From a virus, in IMG/VR virus record IMGVR_UViG_3300045988_177308, positions 1 to 49,185 of that record: a DNA stretch of 49,185 nt; one strand, 5' to 3'. Of this stretch, positions 23,315-47,165 are shown piece by piece. A program made the translations under genes and the position numbers. The notes below the pieces were generated by a model. The model saw only the letters and a program-made list of their open reading frames with translations. It did no database searches and was not told the DNA's origin. How positions within the stretch are numbered: position 1 is the first letter of the stretch; each line of letters starts with the position of its first letter.

Positions 23315-23345
23315 CGTCAAGCCGTCTGGCTGTGTCGTCCGTCAC

Positions 23346-24059
23346 TTATGCGAGCCTGAGGATATAGCGGTCGAAGCCAGCGGCCTGCACGCATTCAACG
23401 AGCTCCCGTCGGCGTTTCTCCCAGCGCTTCCTGTCCCACGAAGCTGCCACCAGCTGGAATGCCACCGGCGTACCCTCTGTGCGAGCCTCCTGCAAGGCGA
23501 AGGTGCGCACACCGGCCAACCTCAGCTGGGAAACGAGGTCTTCGAAATTGTAGTCGATGAGCGACTCGGGGTAGACGGTTGTGCGAACTTCGTAGTCAAC
23601 TCCGGACTCCAAAACGAGGTCAAGGGTCCTCCAGACTTTGTCTCCTCGCACACCGACGGCTTTCTTGTAGTCCTCGGGTCTGGCTTTTACGTCGAGCCCA
23701 ACCCAGTTGACGACGTGCATCATGCGCTCTAGCCGATCGGGGAACATCCCGGACGTGTGTACGCCGATCTCGAAACCGAGATCTGCGGCGGACTCGGCGC
23801 ACGGGATGACCGCCTCCTGGCGCAGTGCCTCTCCACCTGTGAAGACGACGCCGTCGAGCAGCCCGACGCGCCGCTTGAGAAACCCTTCGACTTCGCTCCA
23901 CGGAATGACGCCCGGTGTGCGATTGTCGAGGATGGCTGAGTTCTGGCAGTACGGGCACCTGAGCGGACAACCCTGGCAGAACACGGTGGCTACGAGCCGG
24001 CCGGGCCAGTCCACTGACGACAGTGGCACCAGCCCGGCCACCTGAAGGTCGTCGCTCAC
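23346..24059 (-). CDS. nrdG: anaerobic ribonucleotide reductase activating protein (radical SAM)
   Basis: CQGCPLRCPYC (CxxxCxxC) cluster motif; GTGA overlap with nrdD stop. Confidence 0.85.
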   Translation of the reverse strand: MSDDLQVAGLVPLSSVDWPGRLVATVFCQGCPLRCPYCQNSAILDNRTPGVIPWSEVEGFLKRRVGLLDGVVFTGGEALRQEAVIPCAESAADLGFEIGVHTSGMFPDRLERMMHVVNWVGLDVKARPEDYKKAVGVRGDKVWRTLDLVLESGVDYEVRTTVYPESLIDYNFEDLVSQLRLAGVRTFALQEARTEGTPVAFQLVAASWDRKRWEKRRRELVECVQAAGFDRYILRLA

Positions 24060-25846
24060 GCCTTCACGCTCTCCTTCTCCGTGAAACACGTCCTCTCGGC
24101 GTACTCACCTTTCTTCCCGATGTTAAACGACTGCACAGGCCTGAAGTACCCCATGACCCTCGTCCACACCTCACAGGCTTCACCGCACGTCTCACACACG
24201 AAATGCTCACCGGCGAGATAGCCGTGGTTGGGGCAAATCGAGAACGTGGGGGTGATGGTGATGTAGGGAAGGTGGAAGTTGGTGAGCGCCCTCTTAACCA
24301 ACTTGGCGCACACGGCACCGGACGAGATCTTCTCGTTCATGTACAGGTGCAGGACGGTGCCGCCCGTGTACATGGATTGAAGATCTGCTTGTTCTTCCAG
24401 AGCTTGGAAGGCGTCCTGTGTGTGCGACACAGGAAGCTGCGAAGAGTTCGTGTAGTAGGGGTTCTTATCGGTTCCCGCTTGGATGATGTTGGAGAAGCGC
24501 TTCCTGTCTTCCTTGGCGAACCTATACGTCGTTCCTTCCGCAGGGGTCGCCTCCAGGTTGTACAGGTTGCCAGTCTTCTCCTGATATTGTACGAGGCGCT
24601 CTCTCATGTGCGCGAGAAGCCTCTTCGCAAAGGCGTGGCCCCACTCGGTGGTGATATCTTCCTTATCGTGTGTGAAATTGCGGATGGCTTCGTTGACGCC
24701 GTTGACGCCGATCGTGGAGAAGTGGTTGCCGAGTCCCCCGAGGTAGCGCTTGCTATAGGGGAAGAGACCCCGCTCCATAAGCTCGGCGATCTTGATCCTC
24801 TTCTTCTCCAGGGTGGACGATGCAAGGTCCATGAGGTGGTCTAGCCTCTCGTAGAGCGCTTCTTCGTCCCCGGCCCACATGTAGCCGAGCCTCGCGGCGT
24901 TCACGGTGACGACGCCTATGGAGCCCGTGAGCTCGGCCGAGCCGAACAAACCGTTGCCCCGCTTCAGGAGCTCGCGCAGGTCGAGCTGGAGGCGGCAGCA
25001 CATCGAGCGGATCATGCCCGGGTCGAGCTCGGAGTTGATGAAGTTCTGGAAGTAGGGCAGGCCGTACTTCGCGGTCATATCGAACAGGGCGCGGGCGTTG
25101 TCCGACTCCCAGTCGAAGTCCTTCGTCATGTTGTAGGTCGGGATCGGGAAGGTGAAGACGCGGCCGTCGGCGTCGCCTTCCATCATGACCTCGATGTAGG
25201 CGCGGTTGATCGTGTCCATCTCGGCCTGGAGGTCCCCGTACGTGAAGTCGCACAGTACACCGCCTATAAGCGGATGGTTGTCCTTGATATCCTCAGGGCA
25301 CGTCCAGTCGAACGTCAGGTTCGTGAAGGGGCATTGGCTGCCCCAACGGCTTGGAACGTTGAGATTGAAAATGAGCTCTTGCATTGACTGCTTGACCTCC
25401 GCATAGTCCAGCCCGTCGAGCCGGATGAACGGCGCCATGTACGTGTCGAAGGACGAGAAGGCCTGGGCCCCCGCCCACTCGTTCTGCAGCGTGCCGAGGA
25501 AGTTGACGATCTGGCCGCAGGCCGACCTGAAGTGACGCGGCGGATCGGAGGCGATGGCCCCCGCGATGCCGTTGAATCCCTCTTCGAGCAGGCGGCGCAG
25601 CGACCAGCCCGCACAATAGCCCGCGAGCATGTCGAGGTCGTGGATATGGTAGTCGCCGTTTCTGTGTGCGGCTCCTTCTTCTTCGCTGTACACCTTCGAC
25701 AGCCAATAGTTCGCGATCGTCTTGCCGGCGGCGTTGAGAATGAGGCCGCCGACGGAGTAGCCCTGGTTCGCGTTCGCGTTGACGCGCCAATCCGCCTGCT
25801 CCACGTACTCCTCCACTGTGGAGATGGGGTCGATGTTAACAGTCAA
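24056..25846 (-). CDS. nrdD: anaerobic ribonucleoside-triphosphate reductase (class III)
   Basis: 596 aa; glycyl-radical motif RVMGY near C-terminus, C-terminal CxxC...CxxC zinc ribbon. Confidence 0.95.
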   Translation of the reverse strand: MTVNIDPISTVEEYVEQADWRVNANANQGYSVGGLILNAAGKTIANYWLSKVYSEEEGAAHRNGDYHIHDLDMLAGYCAGWSLRRLLEEGFNGIAGAIASDPPRHFRSACGQIVNFLGTLQNEWAGAQAFSSFDTYMAPFIRLDGLDYAEVKQSMQELIFNLNVPSRWGSQCPFTNLTFDWTCPEDIKDNHPLIGGVLCDFTYGDLQAEMDTINRAYIEVMMEGDADGRVFTFPIPTYNMTKDFDWESDNARALFDMTAKYGLPYFQNFINSELDPGMIRSMCCRLQLDLRELLKRGNGLFGSAELTGSIGVVTVNAARLGYMWAGDEEALYERLDHLMDLASSTLEKKRIKIAELMERGLFPYSKRYLGGLGNHFSTIGVNGVNEAIRNFTHDKEDITTEWGHAFAKRLLAHMRERLVQYQEKTGNLYNLEATPAEGTTYRFAKEDRKRFSNIIQAGTDKNPYYTNSSQLPVSHTQDAFQALEEQADLQSMYTGGTVLHLYMNEKISSGAVCAKLVKRALTNFHLPYITITPTFSICPNHGYLAGEHFVCETCGEACEVWTRVMGYFRPVQSFNIGKKGEYAERTCFTEKESVKA

Positions 25847-34575: not shown

Positions 34576-34623
34576 TACCTTTACGGTACAGGCACAGCCC
34601 CGGACGTGCAAGCTGGGGCTGTG
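34576..34623 (-). terminator. two adjacent hairpins after helicase gene
   Basis: cacagcccc/ggggctgtg 9-bp stem plus gtacc/ggtac. Confidence 0.35.
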
Positions 34624-34632
34624 TGATATAGT

Positions 34633-36105
34633 TCACTTGTTCAGTACTGAACGATTGTTCTCCGCCTGCTGCGCGAGACGCTGGAACGTGCCGTCGTCCA
34701 TCGTGTCCCGAGCCTGGAAATAGTAGCGAATGATCCGCTCTGCAGGCTGGCCCATCCGGTTCAGCCGGCCCTTCGCCTGCTCGCACAGCATCCCGTTCAG
34801 GTCCTCGTCCAGCCACACCTCCACGTGGCACACGCGCTGCAGGCCGTCCAGGCCCTCAGCCGCGGCTCCGACAGTGCACAGCAAGACCTGCACACCCCCC
34901 GCTGTGAACCCCGCAAACGCCTCACTACGTGCCTTAGCCGACTGCGCACCCGTGTACAGAGCTGTCTTCGCACACACCCTGTGTGCAACAGCATTCGCGA
35001 ACCGTTGACTCGACGTGAACACCAGCACTTTGTCGTGTGCGTGGTACTTCTCGATCAGCGCGTTCAACATGTCAAGTTTCCTAGAGCGGCAGTCCGAGTC
35101 GAACGTCACCCTGTCCATGTCAATATCAGGGTCGTACACCATGCACGGCTCGCCCAACGCCACCTGACGCAGACGCACAAGCTTCACAATCGGAAGAGAC
35201 GCCACGAGCAAGCCGCCCTCGATCTCCGTGATCAACTCATACTGCAGGCTGTCATATATCTCACGCTGCTTGTGCGTCAATTCGCACTCGACGATACGCG
35301 TGTCCACGGGCTTCCTCTCGGCGGGCAAACCCACTACACACGGCAAAGAACGAAGGAACGCGCCCGGCTGCTTCTCCGAAACGATCGTCTCGATCTCCTG
35401 CAGTCTGCCGTATCTATCATGTATCCAACTGTTCTGAACAATGCACCACCTCGCTTTCCAGCGGTGGAAAGAACCCTCCACGTACAACCAGTCCCTCTTG
35501 TCGTGGGACAGCGGAACGCGGCTCGGATCTTCAACGTTCCACCACAACCAGCGGCAAATCGACCACAGCCCTTCGAACCGGTTGCCTTGCGGTGTGGCTG
35601 ACATCGCCAGCTTGAAGCCAGCATTCCGCAGGCTCCACATGGCCTTCGCCCTTCCGGATTTACGGTTCGACGCCGACTGCACCTCGTCATAGACGACGAA
35701 GTCAGGCTTGGCCTTCGACCAGGGGAGAAGGTTCTCTTTACCCTTCTCGATGTTCTTCGCATTATAGTCGGATAATCCTAGGTACTCCCTACCGACGTAG
35801 TAGACACCGGGCACACCGGCGCGGAGGTCGTCGAAATGGCCGAGGTGCTTCGAATCGATCCGCTTGAACGGAAGCTCCACGCCCTGCCGGGCGAACGTCG
35901 CCTTCCACGCGCTGACGATCTGCGGCTTCGCCGGCCCCACGATCAACGTCGTAGCCGGCTCAAGCCGCTTCGCCACCTCCACCGCACACAGGGTCTTGCC
36001 CGTCCCCGTGTCCGACACGTCCAAAGCGGCCCGGAAGCCACCCCGCTGTGCGACGATGGCCTCCACCTTCTCCAGTTGCGCCGGGGTAAGATCCAAGAAT
36101 GTCAC
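34633..36105 (-). CDS. SNF2/DEAD-like DNA helicase
   Basis: Walker A DTGTGKT, DEVQ box, helicase C-terminal motifs; GTGA overlap start. Confidence 0.85.
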   Translation of the reverse strand: MTFLDLTPAQLEKVEAIVAQRGGFRAALDVSDTGTGKTLCAVEVAKRLEPATTLIVGPAKPQIVSAWKATFARQGVELPFKRIDSKHLGHFDDLRAGVPGVYYVGREYLGLSDYNAKNIEKGKENLLPWSKAKPDFVVYDEVQSASNRKSGRAKAMWSLRNAGFKLAMSATPQGNRFEGLWSICRWLWWNVEDPSRVPLSHDKRDWLYVEGSFHRWKARWCIVQNSWIHDRYGRLQEIETIVSEKQPGAFLRSLPCVVGLPAERKPVDTRIVECELTHKQREIYDSLQYELITEIEGGLLVASLPIVKLVRLRQVALGEPCMVYDPDIDMDRVTFDSDCRSRKLDMLNALIEKYHAHDKVLVFTSSQRFANAVAHRVCAKTALYTGAQSAKARSEAFAGFTAGGVQVLLCTVGAAAEGLDGLQRVCHVEVWLDEDLNGMLCEQAKGRLNRMGQPAERIIRYYFQARDTMDDGTFQRLAQQAENNRSVLNK

Positions 36106-36662
36106 GCCCGCACCACCTCGAACTTCGCGCACGAGATATCGATCGAACGTACCAGAATGTCCATGTTCAGACCGATCGAGAATGCCTTAATGTAGTACTT
36201 GTCCACATCCGCCTTACCTTCAGGGTCCTTCGTCAAGAGGAACTCAGTACCATCGTATTTACGGCGGCACCATACATATCCCTGATCTTTCAGAATACCC
36301 GTCACCGAATCGGCAGGACACTCCTCCCCCTTCACGTGGAAAGGAGGGTCGTAGAAGCGATCCACCGTGTGCCGTGACGCGTCGTAGTAATACCCGGACG
36401 GGGCCTTGCCAGGTCTGAAAGGCGGTTCGTCCTGCTTGACCAGAATCAATCGAATCCCGTTGCACGTGTAGAAGACCTGCCGCTCCGACGCGTACCCGAT
36501 GCTGATAGCCCGGAACGGCTTGCCCTTGGCGTCTTCCACCGTCTCCCGATATGAGTTGTGCATCGCCTCACTTGACGTCGGCACATAATCCAGCGTGTCG
36601 TCCAGATTGACGGCGAACCAGCCCTCCAGCGGTCCCTTCTTCCCGTACAGCAACTGCCTCAC
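36102..36662 (-). CDS. putative DNA N6-adenine/N4-cytosine methyltransferase
   Basis: DPPF motif (FYDPPFH); GTG start overlapping whiB stop; 186 aa. Confidence 0.45.
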   Translation of the reverse strand: MRQLLYGKKGPLEGWFAVNLDDTLDYVPTSSEAMHNSYRETVEDAKGKPFRAISIGYASERQVFYTCNGIRLILVKQDEPPFRPGKAPSGYYYDASRHTVDRFYDPPFHVKGEECPADSVTGILKDQGYVWCRRKYDGTEFLLTKDPEGKADVDKYYIKAFSIGLNMDILVRSIDISCAKFEVVRA

Positions 36663-36946
36663 AGCTTGCCCTCCTCTTCTCTCCGTGCCCGGCGCTCGAA
36701 CGAGTCTTCCCCGCCTATCACGCCGAACAGCCTCTTCTGCCCTTTCTCCACGCGGTCCGCATAGTCCCTGCACTCACGTCGCACGGGGCAAACCGAGCAC
36801 ACCCACTTGGCCCGCGCATAGTAGGGGTCGTCCTCGACGTCGGCCCCCTCGCGGGGAGCGAAGAACAGGTGCATGCCGATGTCGCTCTTCTTGCAGCGCG
36901 CCTGCTTGACCCATTCTTCGCCCCTCCAGATGTCAGCGATGTCCAT
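36659..36946 (-). CDS. whiB: WhiB-family transcription regulator
   Basis: Four-Cys pattern C-x29-C-x2-C-x5-C and C-terminal basic tail. Confidence 0.8.
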   Translation of the reverse strand: MDIADIWRGEEWVKQARCKKSDIGMHLFFAPREGADVEDDPYYARAKWVCSVCPVRRECRDYADRVEKGQKRLFGVIGGEDSFERRARREEEGKL

Positions 36947-38698: not shown

Positions 38699-38728
38699 AA
38701 AGGGCGGGGGCCGTCAAGCCCCCGCCCT
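38699..38728 (-). terminator. intrinsic terminator (minus strand)
   Basis: gggcgggggc/gcccccgccc 10-bp stem, followed on minus strand by TTTCC. Confidence 0.6.
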
Positions 38729-38748
38729 GTGAAATACGTCACTGTTTG

Positions 38749-41099: not shown

Positions 41100-41134
41100 C
41101 GCACACGGGGCGGCAGTCAAGCGCCCCGTGTGCG
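41100..41134 (-). terminator. 13-bp GC hairpin
   Basis: cgcacacggggcg/cgccccgtgtgcg. Confidence 0.45.
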
Positions 41135-41141
41135 ATGTACG

Positions 41142-41771
41142 TCACATTCCCCTTTGCAAGCCCGTGGTCCATTCGGCGATCTCCGCAGCCACGGAATCGG
41201 GCGTGTCGACGGGGGGGTCCACGACGATCGGTATGAACCTCGACAGCTCCCCCGCGACGAACGCGTTCGTCAGGAACGTCCGGTACGCCTCAGTCACCGC
41301 GAGGGGGTCGTAGCCGTCGGGGTCCGGGTAGTCCGGGTCCGTCAACTCGGCGGGGTCGCGGGGCATCAGCACGAACGTCGTCAGCGGAACGCGGTTCAGC
41401 CAGTTCAGCGTGAGCGCTACGTTCTCCGGTATGGGCTCGCCCCGCAGCGAGGCGTACACCTCGCTGCTGAGCGCCCACCTGTCCAGAATGTACAGCTGTT
41501 CTTCGCTCGCACTCGTCGGAGTGTCGGGGAACAGCACGGGCTCCGGTCGGAAGGAGAGCCAGTTCTCCATATCCCTCGCGTAGTCCTCCGCCTTCAGGCG
41601 GTGGTTTTCGCTTTGTGCACACACAGTCAGCACGTCCGTGGGGAAGTGCCGTATGCGCACATCGGAGTAAGAGGGGGCGGCGGTGCGGCTTTGAAAGAGC
41701 TCTTTCAGGGCTGCTGCTACAGTCGACTTCCCCACTCCGTCGGGACCCTCCAGTGCTATGTAAACTGCCAT
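41142..41771 (-). CDS. tmk: thymidylate kinase
   Basis: P-loop IALEGPDGVGKST characteristic of dTMP kinase. Confidence 0.8.
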   Translation of the reverse strand: MAVYIALEGPDGVGKSTVAAALKELFQSRTAAPSYSDVRIRHFPTDVLTVCAQSENHRLKAEDYARDMENWLSFRPEPVLFPDTPTSASEEQLYILDRWALSSEVYASLRGEPIPENVALTLNWLNRVPLTTFVLMPRDPAELTDPDYPDPDGYDPLAVTEAYRTFLTNAFVAGELSRFIPIVVDPPVDTPDSVAAEIAEWTTGLQRGM

Positions 41772-42745: not shown

Positions 42746-43321
42746 TTATCCCCTTCCTCTAATGTCTTTCGCCATCTTCACCGCAGCCCGATATTCAGGC
42801 CACTGCTTCTCGTAGGGCCGGCGGTCCGCATCCCAGTAGTCCTTGTAGCTCAGCCCGGGGTTGGCCGCTATGAACTCGGCCAGAGAAGTGTAGAAGGCCT
42901 CCTTGAAGCGCTTGGCGCGTAGTTTGCGCGCCAGTTTTGAGGGGTCCGCCGGGTCTTTTCCGCGCAGGTCCACTTCGGACAGCGGGTTTGATTTGAACTC
43001 GCGGAACATGAGCCTTAAGCGCTTTCTCGCCGATATGTTGTCCCGTTCAGCGCCCGACAGCATCGCATCGTCCAGAGACGACGGCGTGGCGACGGCCACG
43101 CCGAGAGCTTCGAGTGCGGCCTTCAGAGAGCTGTAGCGCACAGGGGGGAGGAACTCCTCACCCCCTGTTTGCATCAGCTCGGGCACTATCAGGAGCGCCT
43201 TGTCGGCGTAGTTCGAATTGAGAACGATTCTCACTCCGTATTCGCTCTCCACGTCGGCTCGCAGTCCCTGTTCGTCCAGGTTTTCGTCGGCGACTTCGAT
43301 CGCCACGGCAATCCGTTTCAT
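42746..43321 (-). CDS. first gene of leftward early operon, hypothetical (191 aa)
   Basis: ATG 43321 after gagaggagaaatcgag. Confidence 0.55.
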   Translation of the reverse strand: MKRIAVAIEVADENLDEQGLRADVESEYGVRIVLNSNYADKALLIVPELMQTGGEEFLPPVRYSSLKAALEALGVAVATPSSLDDAMLSGAERDNISARKRLRLMFREFKSNPLSEVDLRGKDPADPSKLARKLRAKRFKEAFYTSLAEFIAANPGLSYKDYWDADRRPYEKQWPEYRAAVKMAKDIRGRG

Positions 43322-43355: not shown

Positions 43356-43422
43356 GATCGATTTCGACTCACATTGCGTGATCGATTTCAACTCGATTTT
43401 ATCCTAGGGACGGATCGATTTC
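43356..43422. repeat. three direct copies of GATCGATTTC (A/G-extended 16-mer) plus two partial copies in the leader of the leftward operon
   Basis: Copies at 43356, 43380 and 43413; third copy sits inside the promoter spacer. Confidence 0.55.
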
Positions 43423-43429
43423 AAGTCAA
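43401..43429 (-). promoter_or_regulatory. leftward promoter TTGACT-17-TAGGAT
   Basis: Read on minus strand: -35 at 43429-43424, -10 at 43406-43401. Confidence 0.45.
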
Positions 43430-43455
43430 ATCGTGGAATGTGAATTTGGTCACAG

Positions 43456-43477
43456 TAGTGTTGTGAGGGGTTGTGTT
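43456..43477 (+). promoter_or_regulatory. extended -10 element TGtTATAAT (rightward)
   Basis: gtgttataatc; no good -35. Confidence 0.3.
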
Positions 43478-43572
43478 ATAATCACGCGCCCGCGCGCACC
43501 CGACCCGGCGCACACCACATAGATCGGCGAGATGTCGCGGGTTCTGTGTCAAGCTCGGCCCCGGGGCGGTGG

Positions 43573-43624
43573 AAATTCTGACAGTGACTGTCAATTGACA
43601 GTGACTGTCAGAATTTCGATACAT
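43573..43624 (+). promoter_or_regulatory. twin 15-bp palindromic operators TGACAGtgaCTGTCA x2 flanked by inverted gaaattc/gaatttc, overlapping a TTGACA -35 (43595-43600) with TACAT-type -10 about 18 nt downstream
   Basis: Exact repeat 43579-43593 and 43596-43610 separated by 2 nt. Confidence 0.6.
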
Positions 43625-43952
43625 CTTTGAATTGAGAATCATTCTCACTAAGGAAAATACTCCTAATACACCACCCCCACACATACTACTACAACGTTAT
43701 ATATCCCTATTTGTATATTCCTTGTAATCCCTTGGTTTCCCTCCTTTGAAATTACAAAACCTCTTGGATCAGGGCAATGTGCTTGATCAATAAGGCGATG
43801 TCACACCCCGGGTATACCCAGCACGGTTTGCACTTGATGCTGTTTAAGAACAACGTGTTCTGCGTCTGTTCAGTTTTGTCACATTCTTCACACGCCCCCG
43901 CTGCGTGGGCTGTGCGCCTGGGGGTGTGCGCCTCCTCGCGGGCCCAGTTGCG

Positions 43953-44060
43953 CCTCAGGATCACGAGGTTGCCCTCTGAGGCGTTTTCAGGGTCGCCCCG
44001 GTAGGGTCGCTTGGGTAAGGGGCTGAAATCGCCTCAGAATCGATCCTCGTGATCCTGAGG
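43953..44060. repeat. 16-bp perfect inverted repeat CCTCAGGATCACGAGG / CCTCGTGATCCTGAGG, 76 nt apart, with a nested 9-bp inverted repeat
   Basis: Read directly; loop contains agggtcgc x2. Confidence 0.5.
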
Positions 44061-44150
44061 GGGTGCCGCTCGACCGCCGGTGCTGTGTGGTGTGCGCCTC
44101 GGGACTGTCCGTTCCGCTCGACCGCCGTTCTAATTTCCCTTATCTTTGAG

Positions 44151-44222
44151 CCCCGAAATTCGAAAATGGCCCTCTTTGTACCCGAAACCTGCCCCCGAAA
44201 TTCGAAAAGGGGCTTCTTTGTA
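44151..44222. repeat. two tandem ~41-bp direct repeats CCCCGAAATTCGAAAA..CTTTGTA
   Basis: 44151-44180 and 44192-44222. Confidence 0.5.
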
Positions 44223-44253
44223 ACGTTTAATGACAACCTTTACCTACGTAACC

Positions 44254-44379
44254 GTAAGTTACTGCTACGTAGGTGTAAGTTACCCTGTGGTAGGTTACGC
44301 TGGTGTAGGTTACTGGTGAGTAAGTTACCCAGTGGTAGGTTACGGCTTCGTAGGTGTAACCTACTGCGAGGTAGGTTAC
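44254..44379. repeat. iteron-like array: eight 9-mers GTA(A/G)GTTAC (one inverted) with 15-bp periodicity
   Basis: Copies at 44254, 44275, 44290, 44305, 44320, 44335, 44356 (inverted) and 44371. Confidence 0.7.
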
Positions 44380-44427
44380 CGTGGCGTATGGCGCTCAGAA
44401 ATGTGGTGAAGGACACACCGCTGGGGC

Positions 44428-44495: not shown

Positions 44496-44582
44496 ATGGA
44501 CATCGAAATCGACTTCTTCGAGGAGCTCGGCGGCTACTACACCGCAGACCTGGCAGACGTCCTGGAAGACTTCGAAGGCTGA
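44496..44582 (+). CDS. tiny acidic ORF (28 aa, MDIEIDFFEELGGYYTADLADVLEDFEG)
   Basis: ATG 7 nt after extended SD, in identical cassette context to the larger genes; followed by GC hairpin. Confidence 0.35.
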   Translation: MDIEIDFFEELGGYYTADLADVLEDFEG

Positions 44583-44585
44583 CCC

Positions 44586-44613
44586 GAAGGCCCCCGCCCC
44601 GGCGGGGGCCTTC
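44586..44613 (+). terminator. GC hairpin after tiny ORF
   Basis: gaaggcccccgcc/ggcgggggccttc. Confidence 0.45.
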
Positions 44614-44817
44614 CCATGCCCGCAGACGCGCCCCAGAATGGCCCCTGAGGCGCCTTCGGAGCCGGGGTGGGGCCACCCTACCGGCGAAGGCCCGCCAGGC
44701 TCTCAGGGGGCCGTCTGCGAGCTCGGAGGGGCGCCCCCGAAGGCGGGGGCTGGGCGCCTCCGGAGACGGCCCCGAGCAATTACGCAACGTCGGTGTTGCG
44801 AAAATCCCGGAACTCAA

Positions 44818-45043
44818 AATGTGAGCTTGGTCTCACTTTCGTGAAATCGGGACTAAAGTCCTAGCTCGAGGAACCATGTGAGCAATCTCACACTCGGAGA
44901 GGCTCTCGAGCAACCATGTGAGAAACATCACAATGTGAGATACATCACGCTCGGAGGGGCTCTCGAGGCTCTCGAGCAACCATGAAAAATACATTTTCCA
45001 GGGGCTCTCGAGCAACCATGAAAATGTGACACACACCATACCC
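44818..45043. repeat. four tandem degenerate repeats (CTCGGAGRGGCTCTCGAGCAACCATG...) containing five ATGTGA(G) motifs and palindromes TGTGAG-N4-6-CTCACA
   Basis: Palindromes at 44821-44836 and 44878-44893; ATGTGA at 44819, 44876, 44916, 44932 and 45022. Confidence 0.5.
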
Positions 45044-45050
45044 GAGCGGC

Positions 45051-45085: not shown

Positions 45086-45116
45086 CATCGGAACAACAGA
45101 GAGAAAGGAAACTCCG

Positions 45117-45338
45117 ATGACCGCGAAGTACCCCTACAGCCAGGCCCTGGCGAAGTCGCTCACCGAGAAGCTCGGGGGCCTCGCCTTCGTCCTGCCCGAC
45201 GGCGCAGTCCAGGCCGATACCCCCGACGGCACCCTGACCGTCTACGCCGACGGCGCCGTGAGAGTTCGCGAGTGCGGCGAAACCGAAGCCTGGCCCACCC
45301 TCCGCAGCGCCGTCGCCGACTGGGGCGTGGAAGTGTGA
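45117..45338 (+). CDS. small early protein (73 aa)
   Basis: ATG after agagaaaggaaactccg. Confidence 0.6.
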   Translation: MTAKYPYSQALAKSLTEKLGGLAFVLPDGAVQADTPDGTLTVYADGAVRVRECGETEAWPTLRSAVADWGVEV

Positions 45339-45347
45339 GCTACCCCA

Positions 45348-45389
45348 CTCCGGAGGGGCTTGACAGCCCCTCCGGAGGACCGCTAGAAT
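45348..45389 (+). promoter_or_regulatory. cassette 3: 12-bp inverted repeat ctccggaggggc/gcccctccggag with TTGACA as its loop, then 18 nt and TAGAAT
   Basis: Read directly; hairpin begins 10 nt after upstream stop. Confidence 0.6.
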
Positions 45390-45739: not shown

Positions 45740-45909
45740 GGCGTTTCTGGGCGTCCGTCGCCGTCGCAGCCGGCATCCTGGCCGGCTGGGGCTGCGGCGA
45801 GGATCTCGGCCGCTGGGACGCCTACGCGGGCATCCGCGACGAACCGACGGTGCTGGGCTTGACTGTGATACAGGTCATACACTACGGGCTTGACACAGCC
45901 GCCCGATAG
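45736..45909 (+). CDS. possible small membrane ORF (57 aa)
   Basis: GTGA overlap with upstream stop; hydrophobic FWASVAVAAGILAGWGCG; reads through cassette 4 promoter. Confidence 0.3.
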   Translation: MRRFWASVAVAAGILAGWGCGEDLGRWDAYAGIRDEPTVLGLTVIQVIHYGLDTAAR

Positions 45910-45955: not shown

Positions 45956-46081
45956 ATGCATACCACCACCTTCATCCCCGAAATCGACGTCCCCGACTTC
46001 GTCGCCAGCCTCCGGGCAGACCGCGAGCGCCAGCGAGCACGACGCCGGAGCCGCCGTCAGAACCGCGGATGGGAGGCCTGA
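45956..46081 (+). CDS. tiny ORF (41 aa, Arg-rich C-terminus)
   Basis: ATG after cassette leader. Confidence 0.35.
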   Translation: MHTTTFIPEIDVPDFVASLRADRERQRARRRSRRQNRGWEA

Positions 46082-46084
46082 GCG

Positions 46085-46204
46085 ATGACCTGGCTCGACT
46101 TCGCACAGGGCATCTGGGACGCCTTCTACGGCCTCATGTCCACCTCCGAAGAGCTCGTGGAGCACCTTCCGACGCCGCTGCAGTGTTTCTTCGACTGGTG
46201 TTAA
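46085..46204 (+). CDS. tiny ORF (39 aa)
   Basis: ATG 4 nt after upstream stop, SD gggagg. Confidence 0.3.
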   Translation: MTWLDFAQGIWDAFYGLMSTSEELVEHLPTPLQCFFDWC

Positions 46205-46215
46205 CGACATCACAC

Positions 46216-46254
46216 CGAAGGCCGCTTGACAGCGGCCTTCGGGCCGACTAGACT
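46216..46254 (+). promoter_or_regulatory. cassette 5: inverted repeat cgaaggccgc/gcggccttcg with TTGACA loop, 17 nt, TAGACT
   Basis: Read directly. Confidence 0.6.
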
Positions 46255-46972: not shown

Positions 46973-47123
46973 GGAAAGGGGGGTGCTATTGAGAATCAAT
47001 ATCACTAAGATCTGGGTTGGAATAGTTGGACTCATGTACGCGGCGTGGTTCGTCTGCGTCATCGTCGAAGCGATAAGTTACCCTACGGTAGGGTAGGTAA
47101 TACAAGTTGGAGTGGTAGGAAAA

Positions 47124-47165
47124 GTAGCCCCTAGGACTAACGTCCTAGGGGCTACTTGTGTTTTT
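47124..47165 (+). terminator. rho-independent terminator
   Basis: 12-bp stem gtagcccctagg/cctaggggctac followed by ttgtgttttt. Confidence 0.75.

Follow-up and report, generated by a model that had tools for sequence, protein, structure and literature searches.

Introduction

In lambda (OR/OL), in phi29 (the p4 sites between promoters A2c, A2b and A3) and in the cluster A mycobacteriophages (the stoperators), one operator is multiplied in a control region between divergent early units, and more copies of it stand at other promoters. Here we describe a locus of comparable arrangement in IMG/VR virus record IMGVR_UViG_3300045988_177308, a complete phage contig of 49,185 bp (59% GC) assembled from a human oral metagenome (ERR589350, PRJEB6997), whose full length is referred to below as the window. 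At positions 44815-45045 the 16-bp palindrome TGTGA-N6-TCACA is repeated as an array, which we interpret as a probable cis-acting set of operators. The locus differs from the phage operator clusters named above in that there is no recognisable cognate regulator gene, the sites lie upstream of core promoters, and the array copies have no promoter of their own.

The same palindrome is known from the CRP family of bacterial regulators. CAP contacts G2 and G4 of TGTGA, GlxR and CAP share the site TGTGA-N6-TCACA, and Actinomycetota use the CRP/GlxR family as a global regulator (PMC10187061; PMC7999487). The sites of CRP/CAP, GlxR and the Mycobacterium CRP have the same 16-bp half-sites as those described here, with the information peak at G2, T3 and G4 (PMC10187061). 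Further shared features are a free spacer, a T/A centre, A/G-rich outer flanks (AATGTGA) and a position upstream of the -35 element, as in activating sites; what differs is that the present sites lie in a phage genome, occur on every early promoter and additionally form a promoter-less cluster of four to six copies. Their TA centre also fits the GlxR consensus.

Two other kinds of element bear some likeness to the locus. The start-associated sequences (SAS) and extended SAS of cluster K mycobacteriophages combine, as here, a conserved block before the start codon (in the present phage GAGAGAAAGGAA) with an upstream inverted repeat at many genes; the sequences are unrelated, and the inverted repeat described here, a CRP-type 16-mer, goes with a sigma-70-type promoter and with a terminator hairpin built around the -35. 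Rex operators of Gram-positive bacteria, TTGTGAA-N4-TTCACAA, show TGTGA...TCACA with the same overall spacing and differ in their flanks, since a T before TGTGA and an A after it are required. A search of the literature on phage CRP-site arrays, phages of oral Actinomycetaceae and avoidance of CTCGAG, a hexamer that turns out to be confined to the array, found nothing specific.

The TGTGA-N6-TCACA array

The initial annotation of this region, which was made from its letters alone, reported four tandem degenerate repeats in which ATG is immediately followed by TGA five times. Both elements are present: ATGTGA occurs on the + strand at 44819, 44876, 44916, 44933 and 45024, which amounts to five copies in ~210 nt (24 are found on both strands of the whole 49 kb), and the four members of a degenerate 30-nt tandem repeat family lie at 44859, 44899, 44965 and 45001. 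Tandem Repeats Finder (TRF) additionally reports a 17-nt unit at 44916-44948. ATGTGA consists of an A plus one half-site of the 16-bp palindrome TGTGA-N6-TCACA, and this register fits all of the copies. Two palindromes of the form TGTGAG-N4-6-CTCACA had also been described; the one at 44877-44892 is exact (TGTGAG-CAAT-CTCACA), while the one at 44820-44837 ends in CTCACT.

When at most one mismatch is allowed, the window contains 13 TGTGA-N6-TCACA sites versus 1.46 expected, a number that was reached in 0 of 100 shuffles. Three of these sites are perfect, two of them within the array, and the other ten have one mismatch; the array contributes four sites (starting at 44820, 44877, 44917 and 44934), the middle two being the perfect ones. 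For a second measure, a weight matrix was built solely from nine promoter-linked sites, which are described in the next section. With this matrix the four array sites score 15.7-18.9 bits and all rank within the top 13 of the genome, and there are 15 matches of at least 12 bits versus 1.36 in shuffles, in which the mean maximum is 13.3 bits. Information in the matrix amounts to 1.1-1.5 bits at positions 1-5 (T1 G2 T3 G4 A5) and to about 0 at positions 6-7, the operator centre prefers T8/A9 (18/26), and a purine precedes T1. Identification as a Rex operator was considered and rejected, as the flanking T is found before the site in 1 of 26 half-sites and the A after it in 4 of 26.

A coding reading of the array is excluded by the GC content at third codon positions (GC3), which is flat in all frames across the region, together with differences among relatives by indels of 10 nt, 1 nt and ~100 nt, which are not multiples of three. 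Instead, we read the array as four strong operator copies (O1-O4) and a promoter-proximal copy (O5) that are interleaved with five CTCGAG boxes (X1-X5; Table 1).

Putative operators at the early promoters

The palindrome is not confined to the array. Ten sigma-70-type promoters, distributed over both strands, have one operator each, centred 17.5-19.5 nt ahead of the first -35 base: P1-P5, the leftward early promoter PL, and minus-strand promoters at 41120, ~38710, ~34600 and 23320. These promoters are of near-consensus form (TTGACA-17/18-TAGAAT or TAGACT) and serve early and replication genes. P2, which is the promoter directly downstream of the array, has the weakest -10 of the set, in alignment with TAGAAT/TAGACT of P3-P5. 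At two promoter-like matches inside genes the operator is absent. If the start of transcription is taken as 7 nt after the -10, operator centres fall at approximately -53.5 to -55.5 from these predicted starts. The perfect site at 43439-43454, which belongs to PL, also lies at approximately -42 from a candidate extended -10 promoter, TGTTATAAT (43474-43482).

In its full form, the module runs from the operator through the left arm of a GC-rich inverted repeat, the -35 in the loop of that repeat, and the right arm in the promoter spacer, and continues with the -10, a leader of ~25 nt, the block GAGAGAAAGGAA and ATG; the phage's real genes have GAGAGAAAGGAA 7-9 nt upstream of their start. GC-rich inverted repeats around the -35 are found at 45348-45377 and 46215-46241 and, on the minus strand, at 41132-41104, 38727-38700 and 34621-34590, an arrangement in which the terminator overlaps the promoter. 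At P1 and PL no hairpin flanks the operator, which nevertheless keeps its usual spacing, and the operator is therefore tied to the promoter and not to the terminator.

Taken together, the number and placement of these sites support the view that the palindrome is a genome-wide operator, of which the array would be the densest and best-matching cluster. The initial annotation had offered, as one possibility, an operator array for a regulator of cassette 2. The operator array is borne out by the ten promoters and by the conserved cores described below; specificity for cassette 2 is not, as sites of this kind occur genome-wide.

Conservation among relatives

Conservation was assessed in a comparative alignment of 26 distinct relatives, whose identity over the region is 82-95%. 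The palindromes are conserved: the O2 16-mer is present in 26/26 relatives, the GTG/CAC cores are kept elsewhere, and nearly every related locus that spans the positions of O2, O3 and the PL operator has a perfect 16-mer there. At the O1 position, three relatives have the consensus TGTGA-N6-TCACA. Among relatives, the N6 of O4 and O5 is close to random and GTG and CAC persist, yielding variants such as TGTGA-CGCACA-CCACG, TGTGA-CATAGA-ACACA and TGTGG-TGGAGG-TCACG, and the operators of P3, P4 and P5 follow the same pattern, with GTG/CAC kept and N6 free.

The GC hairpins around the -35 evolve in another manner. Their sequence drifts, with double changes that restore pairing (three independent cases each at P3 and P5), and the hairpins are therefore selected for their pairing. 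The operators keep their bases around a free spacer; selection therefore acts on the identity of these bases, a hallmark of sites that are recognised by proteins. Most simply, the hairpins are terminators of the upstream cassette that overlap the next promoter.

Sequence 3' of the operators points to how the array may have originated. Both O2 and O4 are followed by CTCGGAG(A/G)GGCT-CTCGAG, the equivalent of which at P3 is CTCCGGAGGGGCT-TGACAG; the array units thus look like copies of the module that have CTCGAG at the -35 position and have lost the -10. Such copies would have arisen by tandem duplication of an operator, GC hairpin arm and -35 module, and, with CTCGAG in place of TTGACA, would bind the regulator and not fire. 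The number of units varies within the clade: 15 relatives hold one more, comprising an extra operator TGTGAGCTGGGACACA, TTGCTC at the -35 place and a GC-rich hairpin piece, and relative to these the window has a ~100-nt deletion near 44984-44998.

CTCGAG is confined to the array

All five occurrences of CTCGAG in the window are in the array (Table 1), and there are 0 outside it versus about 23 expected; for the whole window, shuffles predict 25.8 ± 4.9 and Markov models 23.5-27.4. Outside the array CTCGAG is the most depleted 6-mer (z -4.8). The depletion is also visible in codon choice, with the 57 Leu-Glu dipeptides including CTC-GAG 0 times versus 11.4 expected and CTC-GAA 12 times versus 5.4. 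Related loci that contain the array have 3-5 copies of CTCGAG within it and none elsewhere, over ~750 kb that do not represent independent sequence. The box is located 6 nt before a TGTGA half-site as CTCGAG-(C/G)AACCA-TGTGA, a composite that in IMG/VR is exclusive to this clade. In the closest host-like genome fragment, CTCGAG is not depleted (4 vs 4.9 expected).

The simplest reading of this pattern is that the host population has an XhoI-type restriction system, which drives the purge, and that the copies in the array survive because their function cannot be dispensed with, be it as a second binding box; roles of the boxes in packaging, replication or a methylation switch are possible. The hexamers of the P1 pac site and the GATC clusters of oriC are alike in that several copies of a 6-bp palindrome lie within ~150 bp of a non-coding control region. 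Those motifs, unlike CTCGAG here, have not been eliminated elsewhere in their genomes.

Neighbouring elements

The features of the control region and the promoter-linked operators are collected in Table 1.

Table 1. Putative operators, promoters and associated elements of the control region and of the remaining early promoters
Feature	Position	Strand	Description
Operator of minus-strand promoter TTGACG-17-TATCAT	23331-23346		AGTGACGGACGACACA; 18.5 nt upstream
Operator of minus-strand promoter	34622-34637		Site at the fixed distance
Operator of minus-strand promoter	38728-38743		Site at the fixed distance
Operator of minus-strand promoter	41131-41146		-35 at 41120
PL operator	43439-43454		Perfect; 17.5 nt upstream of the -35 of leftward promoter PL (43429-43401)
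Operator of P1	44402-44417		TGTGGTGAAGGACACA; 2 mismatches; centre 18.5 nt before -35
Promoter P1	44428-44456	+	TTGACA-17-TAGAAT; drives the 28-codon open reading frame
28-codon acidic micro-gene	44496-44582	+	MDIEIDFFEELGGYYTADLADVLEDFEG
Terminator-like hairpin T1	44586-44613	+	Perfect 13-bp GC stem, without U-tract
GC-rich variable spacer	44614-44765		Two divergent haplotypes; many indels among relatives
Palindrome/hairpin	44780-44803		TTACGCAAC-N6-GTTGCGAAA; nearly invariant in 26 relatives
Operator O1	44820-44835		TGTGAGCTTGGTCTCA; 1 mismatch
CTCGAG box X1	44865-44870		6 nt upstream of O2
Operator O2	44877-44892		TGTGAGCAATCTCACA; perfect; 16-mer identical in 26/26 relatives
CTCGAG box X2	44905-44910		At the would-be -35 position, 19.5 nt from O2 centre; 6 nt upstream of O3
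Operator O3	44917-44932		TGTGAGAAACATCACA; perfect; nearly identical across 26 relatives
Operator O4	44934-44949		TGTGAGATACATCACG; 1 mismatch; abuts O3; N6 hypervariable, GTG/CAC kept
CTCGAG boxes X3 (44962-44967) and X4 (44971-44976)	44962-44976		Inside GGCTCTCGA tandem
A/T palindrome	44984-44998		GAAAAATACATTTTC; resembles an operator copy with the GTG/CAC cores swapped for A/T
CTCGAG box X5	45007-45012		Hexamer match
Operator O5 of promoter P2	45025-45040		TGTGACACACACCATA; 2 mismatches; centre 18.5 nt before -35; spacer varies freely in relatives
Promoter P2	45051-45080	+	TTGACA-18-GAGGAT (GAGACT in many relatives)
Ribosome-binding block and ATG of 73-codon gene (45117-45338)	45099-45119	+	GAGAGAAAGGAAAC; conserved
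P3 operator	45334-45349		-35 at 45360
P4 operator	45864-45879		-35 at 45890
P5 operator	46199-46214		-35 at 46226

The 28-codon open reading frame (ORF) and the hairpin behind it, both noted in the initial annotation, stand as described. Codon differences in the ORF among relatives are 30 synonymous vs 8 non-synonymous, and the ORF carries the phage's standard promoter and ribosome-binding block; judged by these features, it is a genuine micro-gene. In 6-7 relatives another gene or gene ending takes its place and hairpin T1 stays. The stem of T1 is invariant in 26/26 relatives and has no T-run 3' of it; terminators without a U-tract are common in Actinomycetota. A strong canonical terminator with a 16-bp stem and a T-run, unlike the U-less hairpins of this genome, closes the right-arm cassettes at 47122-47157.

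Approximately 200 nt of nested GC hairpins had been reported downstream of T1. This part does not clearly stand out from its composition: 44615-44780 folds at -98 kcal/mol vs -90 ± 5 for dinucleotide shuffles (z = -1.59), with 11 of 200 shuffles as stable, and its haplotypes are divergent. The hairpins in the spacer resemble decayed arms of the -35-flanking hairpins, and GGCGCCTCCGGAG is repeated at 44649, 44753 and 45058. CCTNAGG repeats were tried as a feature of the GC-rich part and rejected for lack of enrichment. On the folding and alignment evidence, 44614-44765 is most likely a fast-evolving spacer of hairpin debris behind T1, not a functional RNA.

Two palindromes border the array. The one at 44780-44803 (CGCAAC-N6-GTTGCG) was examined as a possible member of a dispersed family, which was rejected as it is unique in the genome. 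A second, GGGACTAAAGTCC, adjoins the array at 44849-44861 and is conserved across the 26 relatives apart from a few variable positions.

Additional repeats are found upstream. Just upstream of P1, ~ten copies of GTA(G/A)GTTAC occupy 44230-44390 in both orientations with a period of ~15 nt, giving an iteron- or centromere-like look, and two 30-nt direct repeats, CCCCGAAATTCGAAAA(T/G)GG..CTTTGTA, lie at 44151-44222, 42 nt apart. The large non-coding region also contains a near-perfect 46-bp palindrome at 43572-43617 (GAAATTCTGACAGTGACTGTCAA and TTGACAGTGACTGTCAGAATTTC). Long-range inverted repeats pair 43494-43519 with 43906-43931, 43507-43522 with 44083-44098 (94%) and 43953-43990 with 44023-44060 (84%); they lie downstream of the candidate extended -10 promoter, near -42 of which a perfect TGTGA-N6-TCACA is centred, and the inverted repeats at 43494-44098 may represent a large structured transcript or a DNA element. 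PL itself is overlapped at 43356-43431 by three GATCGATTTC(G/A)A repeats. In the right arm, a 41-aa ORF at 45956-46081 (+) has an arginine-rich C-terminus, RADRERQRARRRSRRQNRG, and an isoelectric point (pI) of 11.6; almost all other right-arm early products are strongly acidic (28 aa, pI 4.1; 211 aa, pI 4.2, with 51 Asp+Glu).

Phage genome, relatives and host

Structural genes are encoded on the + strand at 1-21 kb and genes for nucleotide metabolism and replication on the - strand at 21.4-43.4 kb, the latter including a C5 methyltransferase, NrdG/NrdD, ThyA, PolA, a primase-helicase, an SNF2 helicase, a dCTP deaminase and a WhiB-like protein. The control region of ~1.7 kb (43.37-45.1 kb) is mostly non-coding and is followed by short + strand cassettes. 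The WhiB-like gene (36659-36946, - strand; Pfam Whib E 2e-11) lies downstream of the dCTP deaminase gene and was missed by a simple longest-ORF call.

No DNA relative of the region was found among 50,697 GenBank phages by megablast or blastn. By terminase, the nearest cultured relative is Stenotrophomonas virus Jojan60 (52.6% identity), which has a similar genome layout; no TGTGA-N6-TCACA site was found in the 50 kb of Jojan60 examined. About 30 relatives of 45-49 kb are present in IMG/VR, where 31 contigs carry the array, and one early protein has 695 metagenomic homologues at E <= 0.001.

Comparison with one genome per species (185,579 species) gave Actinobaculum sp. oral taxon 183 as the best match of nrdD, with 86% protein and 82% DNA identity, and the match runs on into nrdG. 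For the nrdD-nrdG pair (23805-25834, - strand), DNA identity to Actinobaculum sp. oral taxon 183 F0552 is 82% and 77%. This similarity implies a recent host-to-phage transfer and would point to the host lineage. Because of the closeness of nrdD/nrdG to Actinobaculum, the WhiB-like gene and the oral metagenome source, the probable host is one of the oral Actinomycetaceae, and the phage is probably a virulent-looking siphophage of such a host. A 45,415-bp contig of an Actinobaculum metagenome-assembled genome was considered as a binned phage relative and rejected, as BLAST matches nrdD only (76%).

Discussion

Judged from motif, placement and conservation, we consider it reasonably likely that 44815-45045, within the early control region, works in cis as an array of DNA operators and that its predicted binder is a dimeric regulator, for which a host protein of the CRP/GlxR type is the leading candidate. 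A dimeric, sequence-specific protein would recognise the GTG/CAC cores, and a single such regulator, with operators near -54 at all ten promoters, would control the whole early programme. The array, which lies upstream of the promoter with the weakest -10, would be the highest-affinity cluster and might boost or gate P2, or attract the regulator as a sink or nucleation centre. No CRP-like, cNMP-binding, helix-turn-helix or ribbon-helix-helix protein was found in the phage by Pfam searches of most of its non-structural proteins or by searches against PHROGs; the latter gave no match, and the Pfam matches were to enzymes, with the WhiB-like protein as the sole transcription-related product recognised. 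A host CRP/GlxR-type protein is ranked first because the motif is the consensus of that family and no such regulator was detected in the phage.

Several observations weigh against this interpretation. In E. coli, canonical CRP sites are centred at -61.5 (class I, or further upstream by helical turns) or at -41.5 (class II), and a centre near -54 fits neither position. Sites upstream of the -35 usually activate, and the promoters here are near-consensus, with no obvious need for an activator. O1 is off-consensus in most relatives, which show either TCTCA or a palindrome whose spacer is two bases longer. A simple operator model does not account for the CTCGAG boxes, the A/T pseudo-operator or the palindrome at 44780-44803. 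Finally, the binder could be a phage protein of novel fold.

This last point leads to the alternative that survives best, namely that the cis-element is the same and is bound by a phage-encoded regulator of unrecognised fold, its resemblance to CRP sites being coincidental. We regard this as possible, if rather unlikely. The p4 protein of phi29 binds several sites in the central control region, turning early promoters off and late promoters on, and virulent phages commonly encode their own early shut-off factor. Most of the early proteins are ORFans without a Pfam or PHROG match, and -54 lies outside the canonical CRP positions. The leftward operon begins with a gene (42746-43321) for a basic protein with a highly conserved helical C-terminal domain (predicted local distance difference test, pLDDT, 80-91); however, the model of this 191-aa protein (pLDDT 63 overall) has no significant neighbour in the PDB (best E 0.45). 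Nearly all early products of the right arm are acidic, the phage proteins yielded no helix-turn-helix, ribbon-helix-helix or CRP-like domain, and the motif fits the CRP/GlxR consensus in core, flanks and centre.

We consider it improbable that the array is a replication origin or a pac-like packaging site, whose boxes and palindromes, beside an A/T-rich unwinding element, would be recognised by an initiator or by the small terminase, by analogy with iteron origins and with the hexamer clusters of the P1 pac site. The locus does combine clustered short repeats with an A/T palindrome (44984-44998) and a GC-rich flank, within a mostly non-coding control region of 1.7 kb that has other repeat arrays; CTCGAG is restricted to this one locus in every relative, and the phage encodes a C5 methyltransferase. 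Yet the TGTGA palindrome is not specific to the locus, and its presence at ten promoters at a fixed distance points to transcription. Nor would the need for a unique site purge lone hexamers genome-wide. The gene for the small terminase lies across the junction at a distance of 7 kb, and the contig ends of relatives do not point to the array as a terminus: three partial contigs end at 44683, 44704 and 44898, and several full-length ones near 1/49185.

Very little speaks for a function at the level of RNA, whether the palindromes act as UGUGA...UCACA hairpins in nut-like antitermination through the arginine-rich 41-aa peptide encoded in the right arm, or the region is a structured non-coding RNA, as the initial annotation had suggested. 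The sites do lie at the 3' ends of upstream cassettes, abutting terminator hairpins, and the repeat part (44775-45050) folds better than shuffles (z = -3.86), an extra stability that is a trivial consequence of its content of DNA palindromes. However, position 12 varies (T, C, A) without compensation at position 5, the constant 3-bp GTG/CAC core is too short for a stable hairpin, and paralogous sites share the same bases, whereas true hairpins covary. P1 and PL, moreover, have their operator at the same distance with neither a flanking hairpin nor known upstream transcription. The GC-rich part is not clearly more stable than shuffles, Rfam (E <= 10) returned best scores of <=27 bits vs gathering scores of 44-70, and ARAGORN found no usable tRNA. 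Covariation with relatives, which had been proposed as a check, is about nil: the RNAalifold covariation terms are -0.47 and -0.68 kcal/mol, and double changes affect 3/42 and 1/48 pairs, with the rest invariant.

The suggestion that the five ATGTGA motifs are translated as start-stop minimal ORFs that stall or load ribosomes can practically be dismissed, as, despite five + strand ATG-TGA in 210 nt and a GAGGAA upstream of the second, the stop changes to TGG in 10/26 relatives at site 4 and in 5/25 at site 5, G or C stands in place of the A of ATG in some relatives and in most paralogous sites (AGTGTGA, CTGTGA, CAGTGA), the GAGGAA/GAGCAA located 3 nt from ATG is variable (GAGGGA, GAGCAA) and forms no conserved Shine-Dalgarno, and the motif is half of a symmetric site of which the other half, TCACA, is equally conserved.

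Returning to an operator array bound by a host CRP/GlxR-type protein, we can also envisage a more elaborate version, which we put forward as speculation with the odds well against it. A phage without an early regulator of its own would run its early programme on the host's cAMP-responsive CRP/GlxR, and the promoter-less array would be a copy-number-dependent sink, that is, a built-in timer. As replication proceeds, the array would titrate the host regulator, such that phage early promoters are switched off and the host CRP regulon is deranged. The CTCGAG boxes would in this case be a second indispensable element of this switch, one that binds a protein or senses methylation.

What is unusual about this phage is that a CRP-type operator stands at every early promoter of a genome without a recognisable regulator, and that a hexamer purged elsewhere is kept in the array. 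The confinement of CTCGAG is an unusually clean natural experiment, in that it would mark the retained bases as indispensable and point to an XhoI-type restriction system in the host. The clade is abundant in human oral metagenomes and has no cultured relative, and for its early transcription the present analysis provides a testable wiring diagram, comprising one 16-bp operator, ten promoters and one promoter-less array of predicted high affinity. Should the host CRP/GlxR turn out to be the binder, we would have a clear example of a virulent phage whose early programme as a whole is coupled to a global metabolic regulator of its host.

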